Below, one piece after another: positions 2,867 to 15,644 of a stretch of 20,790 nt of DNA; positions within the stretch are counted from its first letter, which is position 1; every line of letters begins with the position of its first letter. This DNA comes from Candidatus Odinarchaeota archaeon (GTDB lineage: Archaea > Asgardarchaeota > Odinarchaeia > Odinarchaeales > Odinarchaeaceae): the NCBI GenBank assembly GCA_038826135.1, contig JAWBON010000019.1, positions 1-20,790 on the forward strand, read 5' to 3'. Under the pieces are notes generated by a model. That model saw only the letters and a program-made list of their open reading frames with translations, was not told the origin of the DNA and did no database searches. The position numbers were made by a program, and so were the translations under genes.

Positions 2867-4015
2867 GTGAGCAAGGTGCTTGATTTGCCTAAAACTAGTA
2901 GAGGAGACTACAATAAGTTCTTGAAAAAAGCCTACGACGCTGAGAATAAAGCCTTCAAGCAATGGGATAAGAATAATTTTCTTAAAGCAGCAGAATTATT
3001 TAAAGACTCTGCAGAGTGGTTTGAGAAAGCTAAACAGGCAGCCACCACTATTGATGAAAAAGTGTTAACCACATCTAACTTTTTTGTAGAGTTAAGTAAC
3101 CATTACTGGGTTTCAGGTCTTAAAAAATATTCTGACGATGAAGAATACGATGACGCTGCCGAGCTTTTTAAAAAAGCCATATTAAATAAGAAGAAAGCTT
3201 TAGAGGCGGATAAAGAGGATCTTCCGTTTAGGAAAGGGTTAGCCGGACAGAAGGAGGTTAAGAGAAGAGAGTGGAGGTTATTTCAGCAATCCACTTTAAG
3301 AGAATTATACGCTTATTATTTTCTTTCCGTCGGGCTTAAAGCCGAGAAAGAGAAGAAGACTAAGATTGCATTAGAGAATTTCGAGAACGCTGCAGCAAGC
3401 TATAATCAGCAGATTAAATATTTGAAAAGTGTTAAAAAACCGTATTATCTCGTTCAACTATATCTTTTGAAAACATATCTTAAGATAGCTCAGTGTAAAA
3501 AAGAGCTGAATAAAGTGAATGAGGCTGTAAACGATTATAACCGTATAATAAGCCAGGTTGAAAAACTTGATAAGCGCCATAAAATGAGAGCTGAAGCGAT
3601 TCTAGCACTTGCAAACGCGGAGCTGGGGGAATGCTATAAGGAATTAGACAGGGAGGGTGAAGCGGTTAACTATTATTGGCGTTTCCTAGAGTGGGCTAAA
3701 AAAGTTAAACTAGACAGGGAGCAGGCTCTAGAAGTGGCCAGATGTATTTGTATAATCACAATTATAAACATTAAATTAGGGAACACCAGTGAAGTGGATA
3801 AGGCTATTAAAGAATTCAAGTCCGGTAAAATATTCGGTAAAAATATAAGAGAAGTTCAAAGAGACCCATGGTATAATCTAGCTTCCTTAATCTCAGAATA
3901 TTATAAAACCGGTGATGAAAAAATCTTTAAAGACGCTAAAGTCGTGTATGAGAAAATGATTGATAAGAAAGACAGATTCATAACAAGGTTCTTTGAGAAA
4001 ACTGAGAATATCTAA
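2867..4015 (+). CDS. TPR-like alpha-helical repeat protein, SNAP (NSF attachment protein)-like pattern
   Basis: 382 aa, Lys/Glu/Ala-rich, with recurring helical repeats (KAAELFKDSAEWFEKA, YDDAAELFKKA, ALENFENAAASY, EAVNDYNRII, ELGECYKELDREGEAVNYY). Confidence 0.75.
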   Translation: MSKVLDLPKTSRGDYNKFLKKAYDAENKAFKQWDKNNFLKAAELFKDSAEWFEKAKQAATTIDEKVLTTSNFFVELSNHYWVSGLKKYSDDEEYDDAAELFKKAILNKKKALEADKEDLPFRKGLAGQKEVKRREWRLFQQSTLRELYAYYFLSVGLKAEKEKKTKIALENFENAAASYNQQIKYLKSVKKPYYLVQLYLLKTYLKIAQCKKELNKVNEAVNDYNRIISQVEKLDKRHKMRAEAILALANAELGECYKELDREGEAVNYYWRFLEWAKKVKLDREQALEVARCICIITIINIKLGNTSEVDKAIKEFKSGKIFGKNIREVQRDPWYNLASLISEYYKTGDEKIFKDAKVVYEKMIDKKDRFITRFFEKTENI

Positions 4016-4076
4016 AGGTTTATTTAAGAAAACATATAAAATAATTATTAATCAGATTCATCCAGGATGTGTCGTT

Positions 4077-4775
4077 TTGAAAATCTTAATCACAGGAGCT
4101 ACTAGAGCTGGTAAAAGCACTTTAATAAGAACTCTGACAAACGGGAAGAGCATAAGTGTTGATAAACACGGAACCACGGTAGCGTTAGATCACGGTGTTA
4201 TAACAGTTAGAGGTATAAAACTCTACTTATTCGGTACACCCGGATTAGAGCACTTCAGTGTTTTAAGAAAGATTCTATCCGAGGGAGCGGATGGAATAAT
4301 ATTCGTAGTTGACAGTGAAGACAAGTCGAACGATAATCTTGCAAAACTCGTCTGGAGAGAGATAGCTTCACTAGCTCCAGCAGTCCCATGCATAGTCGCT
4401 GCTAATAAACAGGATAAGGCTAACGCTAGAAAACCCAGTGAATTACGCAGAGACTTGAAATTCCTCTCCGGTGTTCCCATAATCCCCACCAGCGCCAAAG
4501 ACAATTTCAATTTAAACGTGTTAGTGAACTCTATGCTAACAATATTAATAGGCGAGTTGAGCCCGCTGCTTAAAAAAATAGAGAAATACAGTGACGTGAA
4601 AGAGGGAATCAAGAAAGTCATGAACGATATGAAAATCGATTATGAGAAGATAAAATCCTATTTAAACTGGCTTGAGTACAGGGAACTTGTGGAAGTGGAT
4701 TGGGAGAAAGGCAGCTACTCTATGAGACGGGAGCTTAAAGAATTATTAGATGCTGAAAGCCCGCCTATTTTCTGA
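4077..4775 (+). CDS. Small GTPase of the MglA/CvnD-like (Ras superfamily) type with C-terminal winged-helix-like extension
   Basis: G1 GATRAGKST, switch I TTVALDHG, G3 FGTPGL, G4 NKQD, G5 SAK. Start moved from the track's 3993 to TTG 4077 (GGATGTG SD-like site just upstream, AT-rich TATA-like region 4021-4045). Confidence 0.9.
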   Translation: MKILITGATRAGKSTLIRTLTNGKSISVDKHGTTVALDHGVITVRGIKLYLFGTPGLEHFSVLRKILSEGADGIIFVVDSEDKSNDNLAKLVWREIASLAPAVPCIVAANKQDKANARKPSELRRDLKFLSGVPIIPTSAKDNFNLNVLVNSMLTILIGELSPLLKKIEKYSDVKEGIKKVMNDMKIDYEKIKSYLNWLEYRELVEVDWEKGSYSMRRELKELLDAESPPIF

Positions 4776-4786
4776 ATTTTAACGGG

Positions 4787-4803
4787 CGAAAAGTATTTAA
4801 GCA
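4787..4803 (+). promoter_or_regulatory. BRE + TATA promoter of the aro operon
   Basis: CGAAAA (4787-4792) followed by TATTTAAGCA. Implies a transcription start near 4825, ~230 nt before aroA'. Confidence 0.65.
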
Positions 4804-4849
4804 TATAACAGTTTAATCTATCAGCGTCTATTTATTAGAGGTGCAGGAT

Positions 4850-4918
4850 TTGGCGGGGTGTTGGAGGTATAACTTTTTTGGAAGATATTCAAAACCTCCT
4901 ACAGGATACTCCGCTTAA
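4850..4918 (+). CDS. Putative aromatic-rich leader peptide [22 protein letters not shown] (22 aa; 25 aa if GTG 4841 is used)
   Basis: GAGGTG SD (4838-4843), 6-nt spacer, TTG 4850, TAA 4916-4918. 6 of 22 residues are W/Y/F. Confidence 0.55.
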   Translation: MAGCWRYNFFGRYSKPPTGYSA

Positions 4919-5057
4919 ACCAGTTTTAAGCACCAGCATATTACCGGCTATAATTAAATCTTCGCTTGATTTTATGCCGTATAAGATTTTTTTAAAAGAA
5001 TCTGTTTTAGAAAACAATGTCTATATTAAAATCTTTGAAAGGGGGTTAAATAGTTGA
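4878..5057 (+). CDS. Putative 59-aa uORF ([12 protein letters not shown]...FERGLNS) of unknown function
   Basis: GGAGGT SD (4863-4868), 9-nt spacer, TTG 4878. Its TGA overlaps the aroA' TTG as TTGA. Confidence 0.45.
4945..4993 (+). terminator. Terminator-like hairpin plus T7 tract inside the aro leader
   Basis: CGGC(4945-48)/GCCG(4976-79) and AAATC(4956-60)/GATTT(4968-72) stems, then TTTTTTT at 4987-4993. Confidence 0.4.
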
Positions 5058-5830
5058 ATGGCAAAAAAATAAGACTTTCTAGAATTATGAAAAACGGAAA
5101 AGCGGTAATAATACCGATGGATCACGGTGTAAGCAACGGTCCTATGGATGGAATAGTGAAAATAGAAGACACTATTAGAAAACTCGAGGAAGGAGGGGCT
5201 ACTGCAATACTCACACATAAGGGAATAGTTCGAAGCCTAAGCCAGGTTCCTAAAACAGGCGTAATAGTTCATTTCTCAGCTTCAACCTCAATGTCCCCTG
5301 ATACAAACTGGAAAGTCCAGGTTGGAAGCGTTGAGGAAGCTATAAGACTGGGCGCGGATGCGGTCTCAGTCCACGTTAACATAGGATGCGATCGAGAGCC
5401 AGAGATGCTTATGAAACTGGGTGGAATAGCTGAAGCCTGTGATGAATGGCAGATACCTCTACTAGCTATGATGTACCCTAGAGGTAAAAACGTGAAAGAC
5501 CCCTTCGACCCTAAAACAGTAGCCCATGTTGCACGGGTTGGAGCTGAACTCGGAGCTGATATAATTAAAACCAATTACACTGGAAGCCCGGAAACATTCA
5601 GACAGGTTGTTGAAGGCTGCCCTGTACCTGTTGTTATAGCAGGCGGCCCGAAAATGGATTCAGATCAAGCAGTTTTAGAAATGGTTAAGGGAGCCATGCA
5701 AGCGGGAGCTGTCGGAGTTTCAATGGGTAGAAACGTATTCCAGCACAGAAACATAGCCGGGATGACCAGAGCTTTATACAAGATAATAGTTGAAGGAGCC
5801 ACTGTTAAAGAGGCTGCTAAAGAATTATAG
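5054..5830 (+). CDS. aroA': 2-amino-3,7-dideoxy-D-threo-hept-6-ulosonate (ADH) synthase, class I aldolase DhnA family
   Basis: [70 protein letters not shown]. Adjacent to DHQ synthase II. Confidence 0.93.
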
Positions 5831-5843
5831 ACAGGTGAATGAG

Positions 5844-6938
5844 TTGAGTAAAGAAGTCTGGGTGGATCTTTCAAATCAGAAATGGCCTTCGAAAAAAGAG
5901 GTTTTAACCACTGCTCTAGAACGTGGAATCAGCACAGTGATACTCGATGAAGAGGATATACCTAAAGCTAGAAAAATAGGGCAGTTAAAAATAGCCACAT
6001 ATTATAAAGATTTAAAGACACCCTCTGAGGCCGATTTCCAAATAATTGAAAATGTAAAAACCAGTGAACAAACGCAAAAAATAAGCGAAAGTATACAGGC
6101 TAGAAGATATGAAATAAACAGTAACGAGGATGTTTTAATAATTAAAGAAGAGAAAAACACACTGCCATATTTTATAATATCAGCTAAAAACTGGAAGGTA
6201 ATCCCCCTAGAGAATCTAATAGCGGAATTCCAGAACAGTAGAACAAAACTTATCGCAGAGGTTAACAGTATTGAAGAGGCCAAACTGTTCCTTCAAACCT
6301 TGGAGAAAGGTGTAGACGGCGTGTTATTAAAGAATCCAACAATAGACCAAGTGATCGAGACAGCCAAGATATTGAAAGAATTTTACAAGCAGAAAACCGA
6401 ACTCACACCAGCTAAAATAACCGTGATAAAACAGTTAGGAGCTGGCGACAGAGTTTGCATAGACACATGCTCAATACTTCGAAAAGGAGAGGGTATCCTA
6501 GTAGGTTCCCAGTCAAAAGGCCTATTTCTAGTCCATTCTGAAAGTTTGGAGTCTGAATACGTTGCTTCCAGGCCTTTCAGAGTAAACGCGGGACCGGTTC
6601 ACTCCTATGTTTTAACACCCGGTAATAAAACCAAGTATCTTTCCGAGCTGAAAGCAGGAGATGAAATCCTAGTTGTTAGCAGTAAAGGAGAGACTTTTAC
6701 AGCTATTATCGGCCGTGTTAAAATCGAGGTAAGACCGTTAATACTGGTAGAGGCTGAAGTTAAAGGTGAAACCTATAAGATAATACTTCAGAACGCTGAG
6801 ACTATAAGACTGGTTGACAGTAAAGGTGAGCCTGTGTCTATAACCCAGTTAAAAGTCGGAGATCAAGTCCTGTTAAATATTAGAGAAGGGGCCCGCCACT
6901 TCGGAACCCAAATCCAGGAGACAATAATAGAACGGTAG
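5844..6938 (+). CDS. aroB': 3-dehydroquinate synthase II (oxidative deaminating)
   Basis: WKVIPLENLIA, LEKGVDGVL, GDRVCIDTCS, SRPFRVNAGPVHSY, VGRVKIE-type GRVKIEVRPL, LQNAETIRLV, RHFG..IQETIIE. Start moved to TTG 5844 (AGGTGA SD). Confidence 0.95.
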   Translation: MSKEVWVDLSNQKWPSKKEVLTTALERGISTVILDEEDIPKARKIGQLKIATYYKDLKTPSEADFQIIENVKTSEQTQKISESIQARRYEINSNEDVLIIKEEKNTLPYFIISAKNWKVIPLENLIAEFQNSRTKLIAEVNSIEEAKLFLQTLEKGVDGVLLKNPTIDQVIETAKILKEFYKQKTELTPAKITVIKQLGAGDRVCIDTCSILRKGEGILVGSQSKGLFLVHSESLESEYVASRPFRVNAGPVHSYVLTPGNKTKYLSELKAGDEILVVSSKGETFTAIIGRVKIEVRPLILVEAEVKGETYKIILQNAETIRLVDSKGEPVSITQLKVGDQVLLNIREGARHFGTQIQETIIER

Positions 6939-7637
6939 ATGGTTTATTTGATAGGCTCCACATTAATATGCGTCTCAATAGTAAAGAGGACGCTGGTCGA
7001 AATAATCAAGGCAGCTAACACACTGTTAAAAGAACCCGTAGACCTCTTAGAGCTCAGACTAGACTATCTTAAACCATTACCAGAACTAGAACAAGTTCTC
7101 AAACTATTAGACGTTAAAAAACCTAAAATAATCACGTTTAGACCTAGAAGCGAGGGCGGTGAAAGCGATCTTGACGATGAAAGCAGAATAAATATTTTCA
7201 AAGAATTCATTAAAAAAAGAGTTGAATATGTGGACATCGAGTATTCAACTCTGAAAAATAAAGAGGTGTTGAAAGAAGCGGAAAACTATAATGTGAAAAC
7301 AATACTTTCAAAACATATATTAGATGAAACACCCTCTTTTAAAGAGTTAAAGACACTACTAAATAATATGATGGTTTTAAAACCGTCTTTTATAAAAATA
7401 TCAACAATGATAATGGATAAAGATGACGTGATAACACTCTCCAAGCTTATAAGCTACGCTAACAAGAAGAATACTCCGATAGTGGTTACTGGAATGGGCG
7501 AGCTTGGAAAAATCACCCGGATATTAAACCCTATAATGGGCTCTAAGATAACCTACTGCAGCATGCCAGGTGAACCTGCAGCTCCAGGCCAACTAGATTA
7601 TAATAAAACTATAACAATGTTAAAAGAATTATTCTAG
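6939..7637 (+). CDS. aroD: Type I 3-dehydroquinate dehydratase
   Basis: DLLELRLDYL, ITFRP..EGG, YVDIEY, SKH...TP, KIS (Schiff-base Lys), GMGELGKITRI, APGQL. Confidence 0.93.
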   Translation: MVYLIGSTLICVSIVKRTLVEIIKAANTLLKEPVDLLELRLDYLKPLPELEQVLKLLDVKKPKIITFRPRSEGGESDLDDESRINIFKEFIKKRVEYVDIEYSTLKNKEVLKEAENYNVKTILSKHILDETPSFKELKTLLNNMMVLKPSFIKISTMIMDKDDVITLSKLISYANKKNTPIVVTGMGELGKITRILNPIMGSKITYCSMPGEPAAPGQLDYNKTITMLKELF

Positions 7638-7649
7638 GAGGTATATTAA

Positions 7650-8729
7650 ATGAGTAAAATAGGTGTAGCAGTATGCGGCGCAACCGGGAGCGTGGGCCAA
7701 AGATTCATAGAACTGTTACAAGGCCATCCCTGGTTCGAGCTTAAATGCATAATGGCTTCTGAGAGAAGTGAAGGTAAAAAATACTCGGAAGCGGTTCAAT
7801 GGATAGTCTCATCTAAGATGCCGGAACAGGTTAAAGACATGGAGATTAAACCACTCTCAACTAAAAGCTTAAAAAACGAGGATGTTAAAATAGTGTTCTC
7901 AGCCCTACCAGCAGATGTAGCCGGACCTGTCGAAGAGGAGTTTGCTAAAGCAGGCTACGCAGTCTCATCAAACGCTTCAGCTCATAGAAAAGACCCTGAT
8001 GTACCGATACTCATACCAGAGGTTAACGCTGAACACATTAAACTAATACCCGTCCAGCGAAAGAAAAGAAATTGGGACGGCCTCATCGTCACCGAGGCTA
8101 ACTGCACAACCACCGGTTTAATAATGCCTTTGAAACCGATATACGACAGTTTCGGCATAGAAAAAGTGATAGTGACAACTATGCAAGCGCTCAGCGGAGC
8201 CGGGCTTCCAGGAGTTCCAAGCATGGCAATCATAGATAACGTAATCCCTTACATAGCTAATGAAGAGGAGAAAGTGGAATGGGAGACGTTAAAACTTTTA
8301 GGGAAATTCGACGGGGATAGAATACTCCCCGCTAACATCAAGGTGAGTGCAAGCTGCAACAGAGTCTTCGTATTAGACGGCCACACTGAATCCGTCCTCG
8401 TGGAGACAACTAGAAAAGCCAGCGTTGAAGAGATTAAAAAAACGCTTGAAGATTTTAAAGGAGAGCCTCAAAAACTGAAACTACCAACAGCACCTAAGAA
8501 TCCGATCATTGTTTTAAACGAGGTAAACCGGCCTCAACCGAGATTTGACAGATGGGCGGGGGAGCCTGAACGCGCTAAAGGCATGGCGGTCTCGGTTGGT
8601 AGAATACGCCCAGACACAGTTTTCGAGAAAGGTGTTAAAATGACTGTTCTATCCCATAATACTGTAAGAGGTGCTGCAGGGGAATCAATACTAAACGCGG
8701 AGCTTTTAGTAGCTCATAAACTAGTGTAG
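7650..8729 (+). CDS. asd: Aspartate-semialdehyde dehydrogenase (archaeal/fungal type)
   Basis: GATGSVGQRF, FSALPADVA, SNASAHR, ANCTT (catalytic Cys), TMQALSGAG, CNRV.VLDGHTE, SHNTVRGAAG. GGAGGT SD. Confidence 0.96.
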   Translation: MSKIGVAVCGATGSVGQRFIELLQGHPWFELKCIMASERSEGKKYSEAVQWIVSSKMPEQVKDMEIKPLSTKSLKNEDVKIVFSALPADVAGPVEEEFAKAGYAVSSNASAHRKDPDVPILIPEVNAEHIKLIPVQRKKRNWDGLIVTEANCTTTGLIMPLKPIYDSFGIEKVIVTTMQALSGAGLPGVPSMAIIDNVIPYIANEEEKVEWETLKLLGKFDGDRILPANIKVSASCNRVFVLDGHTESVLVETTRKASVEEIKKTLEDFKGEPQKLKLPTAPKNPIIVLNEVNRPQPRFDRWAGEPERAKGMAVSVGRIRPDTVFEKGVKMTVLSHNTVRGAAGESILNAELLVAHKLV

Positions 8730-8736
8730 TGAGTTT

Positions 8737-9615
8737 ATGTTGAAAAACCACAGTTTGAACGCGGAGACCAGCCTATACTGTCTAATAGGCAGCCCAGTCT
8801 CCCACTCCCTATCTCCACTAATGCACAATCACGCCTTCCGAAAACTCGGTTTAAACGCAGTTTACATAGCCTTCAACGTGGAGGACAACAAACTCGGTGA
8901 AGCGGTAAAAGGGTTAAGAGCCCTTAACATAAAAGGAGCGAATATTACAATCCCGCATAAAACCAGCGTGATCAAATACTTAGACACCGTGGATGACACA
9001 GCTTTGAGAATAGGGGCTGTTAACACTATTAAAAACATTAACGGAAGACTAGTAGGGTATAATACGGATTGGGAGGCAGCTATTGAACTCTTAAAAGAGA
9101 AAGCGGGAAAACTGCAGGGAAAGAACGCTCTTATAATAGGAGCGGGGGGTGTTGCTAGAGCAATCTTATACGGACTGGTAAAAAACAGTGTTAACGTGTC
9201 AATAACTAATAGAACCATGGATAAAGCCCGCCAACTAATAGTTGAATTAAAAAAACACGTAGGTGAAAAAATCGAGTGCACAGCGTTAAACCCTGAGAAA
9301 ATCAGAGAGAAAATATCAGATTTCCAGATAATCATAAACGCTACACCGCTCGGCATGACACCGAATATAAATGAAACACCGTTAAATACAGACTACTTAA
9401 CCGGTGAAATAATAGTTTTCGACACAGTCTACAATCCGCTTGAAACCCTTCTGATAAAAAAAGCTAAGCAGCAGGGTTCCACTGTAATAGAAGGCTACAG
9501 GATGCTTGTCAAACAGGGAGCGTTATCGTTCAAGCTATGGACAGGCATAGAGCCCCCTGAGAAAGATATGGAGAAAATAGTGTACATGAAGTTGAAGGGT
9601 GATCTTGGTGAATAA
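8737..9615 (+). CDS. aroE: Shikimate dehydrogenase
   Basis: GSPVSHSLSP.MHN, GANITIPHK, GAVNT, GYNTD, IGAGGVARA, NRT, INATPLGM, DTVYNPLET, MLVKQG. Confidence 0.96.
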   Translation: MLKNHSLNAETSLYCLIGSPVSHSLSPLMHNHAFRKLGLNAVYIAFNVEDNKLGEAVKGLRALNIKGANITIPHKTSVIKYLDTVDDTALRIGAVNTIKNINGRLVGYNTDWEAAIELLKEKAGKLQGKNALIIGAGGVARAILYGLVKNSVNVSITNRTMDKARQLIVELKKHVGEKIECTALNPEKIREKISDFQIIINATPLGMTPNINETPLNTDYLTGEIIVFDTVYNPLETLLIKKAKQQGSTVIEGYRMLVKQGALSFKLWTGIEPPEKDMEKIVYMKLKGDLGE

Positions 9616-10480
9616 AAAAGCCTCAGCTATTTCACACGGTGCGATAACTGTGATAAACGCTATAGCGGCGGGATTAGGCTCCGCTATAGGAATAGACCTG
9701 TGGACTAGAGCTGAGGTTGAAATACTAACAGAGGAAAAATATATAAGCAATATTTCAGGTTATGAAGAAGCGGACACCTCGTTAATCGAGAACTGTGTTA
9801 GGAAAGTTTTTGAAAAATTTAATATAAAAGGCTGCGGTGCTAAAATAACCACTTACAGCAATATACCAATCGGTAAAGGTCTTAAAAGCAGCAGTGCAGC
9901 CGCTAACGCTGTTACACTAGCCACTGTTAAAGCGCTTAACCTCAACCTATCCGATATTGAAATAATTAAAATAGGGGTTGAAGCGGCTATACAGTCGAAA
10001 GTAACTATAACAGGAGCCTTCGACGATGCTGCAGCATCATACTTCGGCGGCCTAGTTCTCACAGACAACACTAAATATCAAATAATATTTAGAAAACCGT
10101 TCACGAAAAATGTGAAAGCAGTTCTACTTATACCCGAACAGAAAACGTCAACACGGACAGTTGAATCTATTAATAAAACAAAGCTTATAGGCAAACTCAT
10201 ACCGCACATAGCCGACCTTGTTAGAAAAGACATGGTTGAAGACGCGATGAGTTTTAACGGATTCCTATACGGTGCATGTTATAACACTCCGACGGAGGCT
10301 TTATTCAAAGCTTTTGAAGCGGGAGCTACAGGGGTAAGCGTCTCAGGAACAGGCCCGACCATAGCTGCTTTAATCGACGAGGAGAAAGTAAACTTGTTAA
10401 AAAAAGCGTGGAGCGGGTTTAAAGGCGAGATAAGAGTCACAAATATAAATAACAGTAAAGCTAACGCTGCTATAATATAG
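9608..10480 (+). CDS. aroK: Archaeal shikimate kinase (GHMP superfamily)
   Basis: GAITVINAIAAGLGSAIGID, IPIGKGLKSSSAAANA, TITGAFDDAAASYFGG, SGTGP. Likely GTG 9608 with GGGTGAT SD, overlapping the aroE stop. Confidence 0.95.
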   Translation: MNKKASAISHGAITVINAIAAGLGSAIGIDLWTRAEVEILTEEKYISNISGYEEADTSLIENCVRKVFEKFNIKGCGAKITTYSNIPIGKGLKSSSAAANAVTLATVKALNLNLSDIEIIKIGVEAAIQSKVTITGAFDDAAASYFGGLVLTDNTKYQIIFRKPFTKNVKAVLLIPEQKTSTRTVESINKTKLIGKLIPHIADLVRKDMVEDAMSFNGFLYGACYNTPTEALFKAFEAGATGVSVSGTGPTIAALIDEEKVNLLKKAWSGFKGEIRVTNINNSKANAAII

Positions 10481-10509
10481 GAGGTGAAGGGCGTCTAGAA
10501 AAACAGCCC

Positions 10510-11820
10510 GTGAAAATGGTTAAAGCAACTATTCACCCGGTTAACTCTTTAAAAGGAGAGGTGGAGGCACCCCCATCTAAAAGCCACACCCACCGCATAC
10601 TAGTAGCAGGCCTCCTATCAGAGAATAATATAAAAGTTTATAATCCGCTTATCGCAGGTGACGTTGAAGCTACCATAAACTGTTGCAGATTATTCGGCGC
10701 GGAGTTGAAAATAAAAGATAAGTTAATTGAAATAACTCCACCGGATAAGTTAAACGCTCCGGTAGAGGTTTTAGACGCTAAAAACTCCGGGACAACCATA
10801 CGCTTCATGATGTCGATAGCGGCGATGGCTAAGGGGACAACTCGTCTAACCGGCTCACCGCAGCTTAAAAAAAGACCGATGGAGGACTTAGTAAACGCGT
10901 TAAACACTCTAGGAGCTACCTGCAAATACCTGGAGCGTGAAGGATATCCCCCTATCTCCATAACAGGCAGCGATAGATTAGGCGGAGAGGCTTCAATTCC
11001 AGGAGGCATCAGCTCGCAGTTCATATCCAGCCTATTATTAGCGTTACCAAGATCAACAGTCAACTCTATAATACATATTAAACCACCGGTTAAATCCAAA
11101 CCCTACATAAAAATGACGCTGGAGCTTTTAAGTAAAAGCAGTATAACTATAAAAGCTTCAAAAGACTTTAAAGAATTCATAATACCTGGAAACCAGCATT
11201 ATAATATAAGCGAATACACCGTTCCAAGCGACTGGTCTTCAACCGCTTTCCTACTAGCAGCCGCTGCGATAACTAATTCACCACTAACAGTTACCAACGT
11301 TGACTTCAACTCTATAAGTGCTGATAGAAAGATAATAAATGACCTTGAAAAAATGGGTGTTAAAATAGAAGCAGACGTTGAGAGAAAAATATTGAAGGTA
11401 AAAGAGTCTAAACTGTCAGGTGCTAGAATACACTGCGGTAACTCACCGGATCTTATACCAATATTAGCGGTGATGGCCTCATATGCGAAGGGGACAACAA
11501 TCATTTACGGAGCGGAGCATGTCCGCTACAAGGAGAGTAACCGGCTTTCCACCATAAGGGAGGAGCTTACTAAAATGGGGGTTAAAATCAAAGAAAATAA
11601 AACCGGTTTAACAATAAAAGGCTCAGGTGGAGTAAATCCTTCGAATAATTTAGACTCGCACGGAGACCATAGAATATTTATGTCCCTGTGCATAGCAGCG
11701 CTCAAAGCAGGCGCACCCTGCACCATCAACGGGCTGGAGACATACAGTGACTCCTACCCGAGCTTTATTAAAGATCTTAAAAAAATAGGTGTAAAAGTGG
11801 AGGAGAAGATAGATGCCTGA
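10510..11820 (+). CDS. aroA: 3-phosphoshikimate 1-carboxyvinyltransferase (EPSP synthase)
   Basis: PPSKSHTHR, NSGTTIRF, RPM, SSQFISSLL, PDL.P, KESNR, DHRI. Start may be GTG 10510 or ATG 10516. Confidence 0.96.
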   Translation: MKMVKATIHPVNSLKGEVEAPPSKSHTHRILVAGLLSENNIKVYNPLIAGDVEATINCCRLFGAELKIKDKLIEITPPDKLNAPVEVLDAKNSGTTIRFMMSIAAMAKGTTRLTGSPQLKKRPMEDLVNALNTLGATCKYLEREGYPPISITGSDRLGGEASIPGGISSQFISSLLLALPRSTVNSIIHIKPPVKSKPYIKMTLELLSKSSITIKASKDFKEFIIPGNQHYNISEYTVPSDWSSTAFLLAAAAITNSPLTVTNVDFNSISADRKIINDLEKMGVKIEADVERKILKVKESKLSGARIHCGNSPDLIPILAVMASYAKGTTIIYGAEHVRYKESNRLSTIREELTKMGVKIKENKTGLTIKGSGGVNPSNNLDSHGDHRIFMSLCIAALKAGAPCTINGLETYSDSYPSFIKDLKKIGVKVEEKIDA

Positions 11821-13192
11821 TAACAGTCTTGGAAAAATCTTCAAGATCACAGTATTCGGGGAAAGTCATGGAAACGTTATAGGCGTAGTTGTAGACGGGG
11901 CCCCAGCCGGGTTAAAAATAAGCGATGAAATAATTCAAGCCGAACTGGATAAAAGAAGACCGGGCTTATCAGAAACCTCTACAACACGCTTAGAAGAAGA
12001 CAGGGTGAAAATATATTCAGGTGTATTTAACGGTTTAACAACCGGCGCCCCCATATGTATGATGATAGAGAATAGAAATATCAGAAGCGAAGACTATGAA
12101 GAGTTTAAATCAAAACCCAGACCAGGACATGCAGATCTCACCGCCTATATCAAGTACGGTGGGCTTAACGATTACAGGGGTGGAGGGCAGTTCTCGGGAA
12201 GAATCACAGCAAGCTTTGTAATGGCAGGCGCTATAGCTAAGCAGATACTAGCAGTTAAAAAAATAGATGTCTTAGCCTATACTTATAAAATAGCGAATAT
12301 TACAGCGAATATCCCCGGATTAGATGAGATCAAGGTGAAAAAGAACACAAACCAATTATATTGCCCAGATAGAGAAGCCTCTGAGGAAATGCTTAGAAAA
12401 ATATTAGACGCTAAAAAGGAGGGGGATAGTGTCGGGGGGGTAATCCAGTGTATAGTAACAGGTCTACCCCCGGGTATAGGGGAACCAGTCTTCTCCTCTA
12501 TTGAAAGCGAGATCTCTAAAGCCATCTTCTCAATACCGGGTGTGAAAGGAATAGAGTTCGGCTCAGGGTTTAAAGCAGCGTTAATGAAGGGCTCCGAGCA
12601 TAATGATCCGTTTAAATATGAGAATGGGAGAGTAGTGGCGGAGACGAATAACGCTGGCGGGGTGCTCGGCGGCTTATCAACAGGGATGCCTGTAATATTC
12701 AATGTAGCTGTGAAGCCGACAGCCTCTATAGCTAAAGAACAGTTAACAGTCGACCTTGAAAATAAAGTTCAAACAACTATAAGAGTTAAAGGCAGACACG
12801 ACCCCTGCATAGTACCCAGAGCTGTACCTGTGGTTGAAGCTGTCACAGCGATAGTCATAGCGGACTTGTTAATTCAAGCCGGGTTTATTGAGCAAGTGCA
12901 ACCTTCAGATAAAAAAGACATAAAATATCAGAGGGGATTAATAGACAGGCTTACATTCAAGATACTGGAATTATTCAAGCAGAGAACAGACGCCGCTATG
13001 AACATAGCTAAAATAAAAGCTGAAAAGGAAACCAGTATACGCGATATTGAAAGAGAAAAACAGTTACTAGATGAAGCCGCACTCTATGCTAAGAGAATCG
13101 GTCTACCGGAGGAGGATGCTATCAGCCTCGTTAAAGAATTAATCAGGTTAACGGTTAAATTAGAGGAAAAAACTAGTAAAACAGGCAAGTAA
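11813..13192 (+). CDS. aroC: Chorismate synthase fused to a C-terminal AroQ chorismate mutase domain
   Basis: GESHG, RPGHAD, SGRITA, GDSVGG, GIEFGSGF, VKPTASI, GRHDPC, then an ~90-aa tail with R..ID......L...R....IAK.K......D..RE. Confidence 0.93.
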   Translation: MPDNSLGKIFKITVFGESHGNVIGVVVDGAPAGLKISDEIIQAELDKRRPGLSETSTTRLEEDRVKIYSGVFNGLTTGAPICMMIENRNIRSEDYEEFKSKPRPGHADLTAYIKYGGLNDYRGGGQFSGRITASFVMAGAIAKQILAVKKIDVLAYTYKIANITANIPGLDEIKVKKNTNQLYCPDREASEEMLRKILDAKKEGDSVGGVIQCIVTGLPPGIGEPVFSSIESEISKAIFSIPGVKGIEFGSGFKAALMKGSEHNDPFKYENGRVVAETNNAGGVLGGLSTGMPVIFNVAVKPTASIAKEQLTVDLENKVQTTIRVKGRHDPCIVPRAVPVVEAVTAIVIADLLIQAGFIEQVQPSDKKDIKYQRGLIDRLTFKILELFKQRTDAAMNIAKIKAEKETSIRDIEREKQLLDEAALYAKRIGLPEEDAISLVKELIRLTVKLEEKTSKTGK

Positions 13193-13214
13193 TAATCACG
13201 TGGGGGATTCATGT

Positions 13215-14099
13215 TTGAAACTGGCTGTTTTAGGAGGAGCCGGTAGGCTGGGAGCTTGGATTACAAGATTTTTAATAGCGCACAATATACAGACCGTTAT
13301 AGCTACACCCGATTTAAAGAAGCATAAGCGTTTCATAGATGAACTTGGCTTAGAAGCCTACAGCGACAACGTAAACGCGGTTAAATCAGCGGACGGTGTT
13401 ATAATATCAGTTCCATTAGAGGATACAGTAACAGTTCTAAAAGAGATAACCCCGCATATTAAACAGAACTCGTTTATAATAGAAGTCTCCTCTATAAAGA
13501 CACCGGTTGAAGAATTTCTTAAAGAGAATAGTAAAATCTTGCTTGAAAAAAACATCAGCCTTCTTTCCATCCACCCCATGTTCGGTCCAGGTGCTAAAAC
13601 AATTAAAAGAAAAAATATTATACTAATACCCTACACGGGAAACGAGAATATACTGCGACGCGTTAAAGAGTTTTTACAACGTGAAGAAGCTCGCATAGTG
13701 GAATCAACTTATAGAGAACACGATCAGAAAGTTGCATTCACCCTAGCTCTACCCCACTTCCTAACAATGCTTTTCACCGCGGTTATCAGCAGCAACCAGT
13801 TTAAAAACGATTTAAAAAATTACGCTGGCACCTCATTTAAAATATTAAAGCTTTTATCTGAAAGCCTCCCCTCCGAATCCTGGAAACTCTACTCACATAT
13901 TCAGATGATTAATAATTACACAGTAAACGTATTAGAGAGTTTGAAAACCCACTTCAATAAATTATTCGAAATCATAATAAACAAAGACATAGAAGGATTC
14001 AAACAATTCTGGAATAATAATATACTCCCCGTAGACGATGATAAAACAAACTGGATAAAATCCTATAAGAAAATCTACAATCTCATAGAGAAAATTTAA
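13215..14099 (+). CDS. tyrA: Prephenate (arogenate) dehydrogenase
   Basis: KLAVLGGAGRLG, IISVP, EVSSIK, SIHPMFGP, EHDQ.VA...LPH, GTSF. Likely TTG 13215 after GGGGGAT SD. Confidence 0.9.
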   Translation: MKLAVLGGAGRLGAWITRFLIAHNIQTVIATPDLKKHKRFIDELGLEAYSDNVNAVKSADGVIISVPLEDTVTVLKEITPHIKQNSFIIEVSSIKTPVEEFLKENSKILLEKNISLLSIHPMFGPGAKTIKRKNIILIPYTGNENILRRVKEFLQREEARIVESTYREHDQKVAFTLALPHFLTMLFTAVISSNQFKNDLKNYAGTSFKILKLLSESLPSESWKLYSHIQMINNYTVNVLESLKTHFNKLFEIIINKDIEGFKQFWNNNILPVDDDKTNWIKSYKKIYNLIEKI

Positions 14100-14125: not shown

Positions 14126-15433
14126 TTAGTCGAGTTTCAGAACCATCCTGTATCCTTCAATATCCAGCAGCCCATGCCCGCTATAGTTGAACACTATAAC
14201 TTTCTTTTCATTCCGCTTCTTAGCCTCTTTCGCAAGATCTATAGCCGCACATATAGCGTGGCTTGTCTCAGGAGCGGGAATAAGCCCCTCAGTCTCAGCG
14301 AAAAGCTTAGCACACTGATATATCTGCTCCTGCGGATAAGCGACAGATTTTATGAATCCCTCATTCCTCAACAAACTAACAGTAGGCGCTGCACCGTGAT
14401 ATCTTAACCCACCAGCGTGTATCGGAGGAGGGATAAACTCACAGCCTAAAGTGTACATTTTTATTAAAGGCGTTGTTTTAGCAGTATCACCGAAATCGTA
14501 ACGGTACTCGCCTTTTGTAAGAGACGGGCATGCTACAGGTTCAACCGCTAAAACCTCCGGGGAAGATAACTCGTTTCTAAGTATTTTACCAAGATACGGA
14601 AAACTGAACCCGGCGAAGTTACTGCCACCTCCAACACAGCCGATTAAAGAATCAGGGATAAGATCCAGCTTATTCATCTGCTCTATAAGCTCCTGACCGA
14701 TCACAGTCTGATGTAAAATAACATAGTTCAGAACACTGCCTAACGTGTACTTTGTATCCGGGTTTTTAACAGCCATCTCTATAGCTTCACTTATAGCTAT
14801 GCCTAAGGAACCTGGATGATTAGGATCCTTAGATACAAGGCTTCGACCGTAATCTGTTTTATCACTCGGAGAAGCGTAAACATCAGCCCCCAGAAGTTTC
14901 ATAATATATTTACGATACGGTTTCTGATTATACGAGCAGCGGACCATGAAAACCGTGCATTTTATACCAACCATCGCACACGCGTAAGCTAAAGCACTAC
15001 CCCATTGACCCGCCCCGGTCTCAGTGGTTAAGTTTCTCACACCCTCCTTCGCAGCATAGTATGCCTGCGCTATCGCAGTATTCGGTTTATGGCTGCCTGT
15101 CGGGGATAAATCCTCTCTTTTAAAGAATATTCTAGCAGGCGTGTTCAGTCTCTGTTCAAGTCTCTTAGCCCTGTATAGGGGGGACGGTCGACCCAGCCGG
15201 TAATAGTATTCTACCAGATCCTCAGGTATACTAATATAACGCTCCTTCGCAAGCTCCTGCTTCACACACTCCTTAGGGAAAAGATTCATCAAAGCTTCAG
15301 CTGGGATAGGCTCTTTCGAAGCAGGGTTAAGATACGGTGGAAACTCTGATCGTATATCCGCTAATATATTATACCATTTCCTAGGCAACTCATCCAATCC
15401 AAGTTGAACCTTCACATCATTCATATTAGACAT
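14126..15433 (-). CDS. trpB: Tryptophan synthase beta chain, type 2 (stand-alone TrpB2)
   Basis: 435 aa, LP.KWYNI, GSHKPNTA (PLP Lys), TETGAGQWG, GCVGGGSNFAG, PPPIHAGGLRYHG, PAPETSHAI, FNYSGHGLLD. GGAGGT SD at 15445-15440. Confidence 0.96.
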   Translation of the reverse strand: MSNMNDVKVQLGLDELPRKWYNILADIRSEFPPYLNPASKEPIPAEALMNLFPKECVKQELAKERYISIPEDLVEYYYRLGRPSPLYRAKRLEQRLNTPARIFFKREDLSPTGSHKPNTAIAQAYYAAKEGVRNLTTETGAGQWGSALAYACAMVGIKCTVFMVRCSYNQKPYRKYIMKLLGADVYASPSDKTDYGRSLVSKDPNHPGSLGIAISEAIEMAVKNPDTKYTLGSVLNYVILHQTVIGQELIEQMNKLDLIPDSLIGCVGGGSNFAGFSFPYLGKILRNELSSPEVLAVEPVACPSLTKGEYRYDFGDTAKTTPLIKMYTLGCEFIPPPIHAGGLRYHGAAPTVSLLRNEGFIKSVAYPQEQIYQCAKLFAETEGLIPAPETSHAICAAIDLAKEAKKRNEKKVIVFNYSGHGLLDIEGYRMVLKLD

Positions 15434-15503: not shown

Positions 15504-15644
15504 CTAAGGCCACAATAACCAGCGCCAAGCCCAGATCCGGCTTAACAAAAAAGCCTCAGATGAAAAAACACTATTTAAAAACAGTTCTACTTTCAAGTAA
15601 GGGTTAACACCACTCGCGCACTGCACTGTTAAAGCTAACTCCAT
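15504..15644 (-). CDS. Putative Trp-rich leader peptide ending LLSRIWAWRWLLWP (46 aa from ATG 15644; 14 aa from TTG 15548)
   Basis: Four TGG codons at 15533, 15527, 15521 and 15512; TAG 15506-15504. In-frame starts: ATG 15644 (AAGGTG SD, 11-nt spacer), GTG 15626, TTG 15596, TTG 15548 (GAGG SD, 5-nt spacer). Confidence 0.65.
   Translation of the reverse strand: MELALTVQCASGVNPYLKVELFLNSVFSSEAFLLSRIWAWRWLLWP

Follow-up and report, generated by a model that had tools for sequence, protein, structure and literature searches.

A candidate ribosome-read leader with conserved tyrosine and phenylalanine codons upstream of the shikimate operon of Odinarchaeia

Described leader systems and the aro leader

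In bacteria, the sensing of amino-acid supply by ribosomes that read leader peptides is textbook knowledge. The control known for amino-acid operons in archaea is exerted by protein regulators such as TrpY, and a literature search found no report of a leader-peptide attenuator in an archaeon. In the enterobacterial attenuators (pheL-pheA and trpL-trpE, with thr and ilv as multivalent examples), the 5' leader of an amino-acid biosynthetic operon contains, within RNA secondary structure, a short ORF that has a ribosome-binding site to itself; the product codons clustered in this ORF are retained, but the remainder of the peptide varies. The same features are seen in uORF-A, the short frame described here, which precedes the shikimate (aro) operon of a Candidatus Odinarchaeota archaeon. 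However, the uORF-A leader also has a second long ORF, of unconstrained sequence, that runs to the first gene; its host is an archaeon, whose type of RNA polymerase terminates at oligo-T or through aCPSF1/FttA; and it has neither the paired terminator and antiterminator nor the hairpin-plus-U-tract terminator of the enterobacterial leaders in conserved form. The initial annotation had read the frame by the logic of such attenuators. Of that comparison, the conserved uORF with its own SD, start and Tyr/Phe codons stands, but a conserved terminator/antiterminator pair and a match to an Rfam leader model were not found. Consequently, the assignment of the uORF-A leader to the leader-peptide kind is supported, but it is not a classical attenuator.

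Other bacterial systems share different elements with this leader. The +1 frameshift of E. coli prfB (RF2) has, like uORF-A, an upstream SD-like GGAGG, a UUU U codon context that permits re-pairing, a potentially slow A-site codon, and an open +1 frame. In prfB, the SD-like stimulator that promotes +1 shifting lies 3 nt upstream, whereas the spacing of the uORF-A GGAGG is 5-6 nt. Furthermore, the sensor, a release factor in prfB, would be an aminoacyl-tRNA in uORF-A, and the shifted frame leads to the next gene rather than encoding a conserved protein. In the translational attenuation of ermC and cat, the leader ORF lies, as does uORF-A, inside a hairpin that a stalled ribosome would remodel. 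There, the stall frees the SD of the next gene, which is located in the 3' arm; in the uORF-A leader, by contrast, the SD (SD2) and UUG of the second ORF are in the 5'/apical part, under a ribosome positioned at codons 5-13, and the 3' arms of the hairpin are C-rich segments that resemble anti-SD sequences.

The genome (G000; 1.26 Mb in 105 contigs) carries a shikimate operon of the ADH-synthase/DHQ-synthase-II type, whose genes occupy 5054-14099 of the window, that is, of the whole 20,790-nt stretch of DNA that was analysed. The gene order is aroA', aroB', aroD, asd, aroE, a GHMP-type shikimate kinase, aroA, an aroC-chorismate mutase fusion, and prephenate dehydrogenase. The fusion gene (11813-13192) joins chorismate synthase to a type II chorismate mutase domain, and asd (7650-8729), encoding aspartate-semialdehyde dehydrogenase, supplies the co-substrate of ADH synthase from inside the operon. 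The leader is the 278-nt gap between the end of a small GTPase gene (4775) and aroA' (Table 1). This GTPase gene (3993-4775), which is Ras/Arf-like, lies directly 5' of the leader, and the synteny is kept in every Odinarchaeia contig examined.

A BRE/TATA motif, GAAAA[AG]TATTTAA, is kept in all ten Odinarchaeia leaders recovered, with one A/G difference, and lies 65-78 nt 5' of the Cys-Trp codons of uORF-A. Given the usual archaeal TATA spacing, transcription is expected to start at about 4823-4824, 5' of uORF-A; the ORF would then lie just 3' of the start, as had been proposed initially. Read on the minus strand, the region around the U-run (4869-4880) has the sequence AAAAAAG TTATACC; this is similar to the forward BRE/TATA and could be an antisense promoter.

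Table 1. Coordinates of the features of the aro leader and the trpB2 locus, with the uORF-A products of distant Odinarchaeia leaders
Feature	Position in window	Strand	Remarks
BRE/TATA, CGAAAAG TATTTAA	4787-4800	+	Putative promoter, from the archaeal consensus
9-mer TATCAGCGT	4819-4827	+	Over the expected transcription start; invariant in the genus
SD1 of uORF-A, GAGGTG	4838-4843	+	6 nt before the TTG at 4850
uORF-A	4850-4918	+	22 sense codons; TTG start, TAA stop at 4916-4918
Hairpin P1, 5' arm, GGCGGGGUGU	4852-4861	+	Codons 1-4; pairs with 4906-4915
GGAGGU	4863-4868	+	Within the Trp-Arg codons; candidate SD2 for sORF-B and/or SD-like element 6 nt before the U-run; invariant in ten Odinarchaeia leaders and family g18
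U-run, UUU UUU	4874-4879	+	Two Phe codons; in every Odinarchaeia and g18 leader, the first is UUU with a further U after it (U5-U7)
sORF-B	4878-5057	+	59 codons, +1 frame relative to uORF-A; UUG start; TGA overlaps the aroA' TTG (TTGA)
Hairpin P1, 3' arm, AUACUCCGCU	4906-4915	+	Codons 19-22
Anti-SD1 segment, GCACC	4930-4934	+	ACACCUC in the sister species; predicted to close an outer helix with SD1
SD3 (GGGGGU) and TTG start of aroA'	5041-5056	+	
aroA' (ADH synthase)	5054-5830	+	TTG start agrees with homologues; in-frame stop at 5048
trpB2	14126-15433	-	
trpB2 leader ORF	15504-15644	-	46 codons; ends I-W-A-W-R-W-L-L-W-P; behind a CCGAAAATATTATATAC promoter
uORF-A of L125			22 residues
uORF-A of L126			MREVECWRNYFFSSWNERN
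uORF-A of L128			MRCDAIRGCWRYHFFGRFTKHLSAHHQ
uORF-A of L130			MRCVAIRGCWRYHFFEEYSKPLSGKTE
uORF-A of L131			GTG start, ECWRNYFFYRRNRSI

Conservation of uORF-A and the occurrence of related leaders

The frame is present exactly as first described, with GAGGTG, a 6-nt spacer, and a TTG that opens an ORF in which five codons of nine (W-R-Y-N-F-F-G-R-Y), and six of the 22 in the whole ORF, are aromatic. The accompanying caveat was that TTT/TAT codons are frequent in AT-rich DNA. In crude leader regions of this genome, 69 of 2515 short ORFs (2.7%) have at least five aromatic residues in nine, as do three of the 54 short leader ORFs that bear an SD. As the 278-nt leader contains several sORFs, such a composition alone would be met by chance about once in ten; the binomial P for 6 aromatic residues of 21 is 0.007-0.02. 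Taken by itself, then, the aromatic composition of uORF-A would be weak evidence, and it is the conservation in ten leaders that lifts the frame above chance. A chance ORF, or a small trans-acting peptide unrelated to control of the operon, would fit the frequency with which equal aromatic density occurs among leader sORFs, but not the retention of uORF-A in ten leaders, always at an aro operon and in synteny. Moreover, neither a second copy of uORF-A nor a shared operator was found elsewhere in the genome, and we regard this explanation as hardly credible.

Some seven distinct lineages are represented among the ten Odinarchaeia leaders, in which ADH synthase identity falls as low as 81%. Three sister species and a metagenome contig of 92% identity (MG35) align with the G000 leader over its whole length; the distant Odinarchaeia were found by a protein search with ADH synthase (81-87% identity), and their contigs are syntenic (GTPase, leader, aroA'). 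Scans of public collections with a conserved 19-mer and with a gapped pattern gave, beyond known genus members and chance bacterial matches, one 92%-identical metagenome contig. Order-level relatives (family f2) were uninformative as a comparison, as they carry only an aldolase paralogue.

Within the genus, uORF-A has 22 codons in all cases and reads M-[A/V]-[G/E]-C-W-R-Y-N-F-F-[G/E]-[R/E]-[Y/F]-..-[Y/H]-S-A-stop. Codons 4-10 show synonymous changes alone (TGT/TGC, AAC/AAT), and codon 13 is TAT, TTC, TAC or TAT amid an otherwise scrambled stretch. The leader provides an internal control, in that the spacers between SD1 and its start and between SD3 and its start vary at most positions in the genus; in the 9 nt between GGAGGU and the UUG of sORF-B, which form part of the codons Y-N-F-F, only one synonymous site has changed. 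The fixity of these nine nucleotides relative to the freely varying SD1 and SD3 spacers argues for an extra constraint on those codons.

Across all ten leaders, an in-frame TTG or GTG lies 6-9 nt after a purine-rich SD. The distance from the start to the Cys codon is 2, 3 or 8 codons (in L126, 4 when counted from the ATG), and the start shifts by up to 5 codons with the frame kept; the length ranges from 17 to 27 codons, and the stops vary between lineages (TAA, TAG, TGA). The core [G/E]-C-W-R-(Y,N/H)-F-F and a fifth aromatic codon are found in every case. F-F is invariant, with TTT or TTC as its second codon; every leader has one Tyr codon here, which may exchange places with Asn (TAT-AAC, TAT-CAC, AAT-TAC); and the fifth aromatic codon, 1-4 codons after FF, is TAT, TAC, TTC, TTT or TGG. 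Synonymous changes in the core are TGT/TGC, AAC/AAT, and TTT/TTC. Alignment across relatives had been put forward initially as a check for conserved W/Y/F codons with synonymous variation, and it bears out the proposal for Tyr and Phe and for a fifth codon that varies within the aromatic class. Judged from these alignments, the pattern is one that would be expected of a translated frame whose aromatic codons matter and would not be expected from an RNA motif alone.

A divergent Odinarchaeia leader of 438 nt (L126 and L127, 2063-2500) contains three successive ORFs: uORF-A (ECWRNYFFSSW), a second that ends SKFFSYSTFYLF, and a third that ends in an ATGA overlap with aroA'. L126 has both uORF-A and the aromatic tail SKFFSYSTFYLF.

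In two other Asgard families (g18 and f18), the leader ORFs before aro operons are far more aromatic. In g18 (Promethearchaeota archaeon; loci L075, L079, L080, L088-L092), the aro operon opens with aspartokinase, and the leader reads GAGAGGTG-N6-TTG TGG AGG CCT AGT TTT TAC TAA, a seven-codon ORF encoding MWRPSFY, of which G034 and G058 have an in-frame tandem duplication (39 nt). In G058, the assembly is broken within this leader. One base after the MWRPSFY stop, an ATG opens a second frame of 55 codons, the tail of which has 13 aromatic residues in 21 codons (P ~2e-9); its stop lies within a small hairpin, CCGCUUCUAAGCGG, and 3' of this hairpin come a T-run and the SD of aspartokinase. When 400 Asgard genomes were searched for the shared motif GAGGTG..YGGAGG..TTTTT, the Odinarchaeia and g18 aro leaders were returned with 3 stray matches, and because of this near-exclusivity the two kinds of leader are taken to be related. 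In f18, the leader ORF of L086 (G028; oriented 4542-4637) ends MAGFSYTYSYRYSYTYRV before the aro operon; it has six Tyr codons, one at every second codon, and its end overlaps an inverted repeat, CUAUACC..GGUAUAG. No striking aromatic sORF was found in the aro leaders of f3, f7, f9, f14, f23, f19 (a weak case), a Nitrososphaerota contig, and two other contigs, which argues that the device is lineage-restricted.

The initial annotation had taken Trp, Tyr and Phe together as the end products of the downstream pathway. This holds for Tyr and Phe but not for Trp: searches of G000 and of the closed genome G002 gave neither anthranilate synthase (PF00425) nor TrpA (PF00290). Trp is therefore not made from chorismate in the genus, and the product codons are those for Tyr and Phe. 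In the g18 genome G043, the Trp codon has become CGG while GGAGG is kept, which suggests that the Trp codon may be there for the sake of GGAGG, in keeping with the lack of trpE and trpA in the genus.

The sole Trp-forming enzyme seen in G000 and G002 is a PALP-family gene that adjoins the aro operon. Its product is probably TrpB2, in which case Trp would come from salvaged indole and not from de novo synthesis. This gene has a leader ORF of its own; the four genus members all carry it, with the motif FWAWRWL[L/T]WP and with 3-nt indels that keep the frame, and it has 4 Trp in 10 codons (P ~1e-6). It resembles uORF-A in its similar BRE/TATA (CGAAAA-TAT..), its cognate codons, its W-R motif, its conservation in the genus, and its enclosure by long-range pairing. 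It differs from uORF-A in its length, in the C-terminal position of its regulatory codons, in a much stronger codon enrichment, and in that no bridging ORF was seen. A crude genome-wide screen, whose 45-codon limit missed this 46-codon leader, gave no convincing His, Thr, Leu or other leaders.

Leader structure and the bridging frame

The leader RNA can form a hairpin around the aromatic codons. In the genus, its base P1 is a 10-bp helix in which the variable positions all stay paired via one-sided changes; in the distant leaders, the 5' arm of P1 is the same and its 3' partner is located elsewhere, and the hairpin encloses the aromatic codons in all ten leaders. The G000 fold has an energy of -34.9 kcal/mol (z = -3.2). 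As the z-scores beyond G000 and G002 are modest (about -0.45 to -2.5 in the divergent leaders), the case for uORF-A does not rest on structure. The outer helix between SD1 and anti-SD1 shows one U-A to C-G double change in G000 and is broken in MG35, and GGAGGU pairs with ACCUCC (4894-4899) in G000 only.

With ribosome footprints masked at codons 5, 10, 13 and 20 and at the stop in five leaders, no conserved alternative helix was found. There was also no consistent effect on the aroA' SD, which was sequestered upon a stall in G000 and MG35 only. Thus, a single conserved hairpin domain is seen rather than a conserved terminator/antiterminator pair. Likewise, no conserved U-tract terminator was found between uORF-A and aroA'; runs of U5-U7 occur in most leaders, in differing places, but there is none in G003 and only U4 in G001. 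The T-run inside uORF-A was considered as a terminator sensed by translation and is excluded by geometry, as the codons would still be inside RNA polymerase at the T-run. An Rfam search of the window gave no family at gathering score, and at a permissive threshold 4770-5070 gave only two noise matches (E ~9-10).

The core of uORF-A is also conserved as nucleotides and overlaps both the hairpin arm and GGAGG, and so part of the signal could lie at the level of the RNA. In its full form, this explanation holds that the leader is an RNA element only, a structured 5' leader with the ribosome-binding site of sORF-B, in which the short frame is incidental and untranslated; the element might act through SD/anti-SD helices, through the binding of a protein or ligand, or through a U-run at which polymerase pauses or terminates. 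The persistence of GGAGG where Trp is lost, a UUU bias beyond coding need, the predicted partial sequestration of SD1, and helix changes that all preserve pairing in the genus would fit such an element, and a 22-codon open frame is not rare in AT-rich DNA. However, an RNA element does not explain why the SD and start move and yet remain in frame, why the ORF is kept with different lengths and stops, why Tyr is kept through a swap of position, or why the fifth codon varies among TAT, TAC, TTC, TTT and TGG within an unconserved stretch. Furthermore, the TGT/TGC change is synonymous but breaks a predicted pair, the apical region, in contrast to an aptamer, lacks conservation on its 3' side, and the leader has no Rfam match. 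An element of RNA alone is therefore considered improbable.

The bridge from uORF-A to the operon was absent from the initial annotation. It is formed by sORF-B, whose UUG lies nine bases 3' of GGAGGU. Between the uORF-A stop and aroA', this frame has no stops in eight of the ten leaders, and the other frames have 1-9; in shuffled sequences, the probability that any frame is open is 0.003-0.13 per leader. In L131, the +1 frame has no canonical start for ~26 codons, and yet it is open. A hand count of the differences between G000 and the 92%-identical MG35 gave ~17 nonsynonymous and 1-2 synonymous changes in sORF-B, and no Pfam match was found. The conserved properties of sORF-B are simply that it stays open and that it ends on the aroA' start codon. 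An open frame with a drifting peptide argues that translation through the leader, rather than its product, has been selected.

A proposed two-ORF relay

These observations have led to a model, which we hold to be fairly likely, in which the leader is a cis-acting sensor of Tyr/Phe supply that is read by ribosomes and is connected to the operon by a relay of two ORFs. Thus, ribosomes reading the leader would probably control the aro operon. A ribosome would load at SD1 and the TTG and read uORF-A, which would set the codons for one Tyr, Phe-Phe and a further aromatic residue in the apical portion of the hairpin, along with the Trp codon that also forms part of GGAGG. When Tyr- or Phe-tRNA is short, the ribosome would dwell on the aromatic codons, on the U-run just after GGAGG, and a ribosome held there would keep the hairpin open while sitting on the entry point of sORF-B (GGAGGU, 9 nt, UUG). 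The dwell time in uORF-A would then decide the passage of ribosomes through sORF-B to aroA', and this passage would set the translation of the operon and probably the completion of its transcript. The trpB2 leader with its four conserved Trp codons and the aromatic-rich leader ORFs of other Asgard families make sensing by the ribosome credible.

The sign of the response presents a difficulty for this model. A ribosome on codons 5-13 covers SD2 and the UUG, and consequently, under starvation, simple stalling would let fewer ribosomes enter sORF-B, the opposite of what a biosynthetic operon needs. There would be ways round the problem, namely an opening of the hairpin that acts on transcription or on the fate of the RNA, an arrest induced by the end product, or a +1 slip; the output of a pause in uORF-A might, then, be premature termination, translational coupling, or a change of frame.

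In the last of these, a hungry-codon +1 frameshift on GGAGG-N6-UUU-UUY would turn the operon on under Phe/Tyr starvation. The second Phe codon (Tyr in g18) would wait in the A site while the P-site tRNA-Phe, aided by GGAGG, slips from UUU to the overlapping UUU. A starved ribosome would then follow sORF-B to the aroA' start, whereas with ample Phe/Tyr it would reach the in-frame stop at 4916. Such a slip would have the correct regulatory sign and would account for the sequence-free bridging frame, which is open from the U-run to aroA' with an unconstrained peptide, even in L131, where the canonical start is missing. It would also account for the first Phe codon, which is UUU with a U after it in each of the ten Odinarchaeia leaders and in all g18 modules, despite the about equal use of TTT and TTC in the genes of this genome (7076 vs 7362; 49% TTT). 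In addition, the A-site codon is always aromatic (UUU, UUC, UAC), and GGAGG is fixed 5-6 nt upstream even where no start lies at SD spacing from it (g18, L126, L131). However, a UUG start is found 9 nt after GGAGGU in four of the seven Odinarchaeia lineages, and an ATG is found beside the uORF stop in g18 and L126; as these starts are available for the second frame, ordinary initiation or reinitiation suffices and a slip is not required. The 6-nt spacing of GGAGG also departs from the 3 nt that stimulates shifting in prfB, and the conserved aromatic codon after FF is left unexplained. We judge a frameshift unlikely.

The sign would be correct, too, if uORF-A encoded a product-sensing arrest peptide like TnaC. 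In this case, nascent ECWRYNFF would stall the ribosome when free aromatic amino acids are abundant, and the stalled ribosome, by covering SD2 and the UUG of sORF-B, would shut the operon, a geometry of occlusion suited to feedback repression. Conservation of the core at the level of residues, including the non-aromatic Cys and Arg, is consistent with such a peptide, but the Cys and Arg codons are also accounted for by the helix arm and GGAGG. Furthermore, the g18 homologue, with 7 codons, is too short to fill the exit tunnel, and the aromatic tails of g18, L126 and G028 resemble codon sensors more than they do a specific peptide. An arrest peptide is consequently thought very unlikely.

If the relay is functional, the closest relatives of eukaryotes among prokaryotes would be using coupled transcription-translation to control genes, and two ORFs acting in succession without a terminator/antiterminator pair would constitute an architecture unlike the bacterial one. 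Should the +1 frameshift prove true, Asgard archaea would possess a natural amino-acid sensor built from recoding rather than from terminator hairpins. In either case, the leader is a concrete, mutable element of 230 nt with which translation-dependent control, and possibly recoding, may be tested in archaea.
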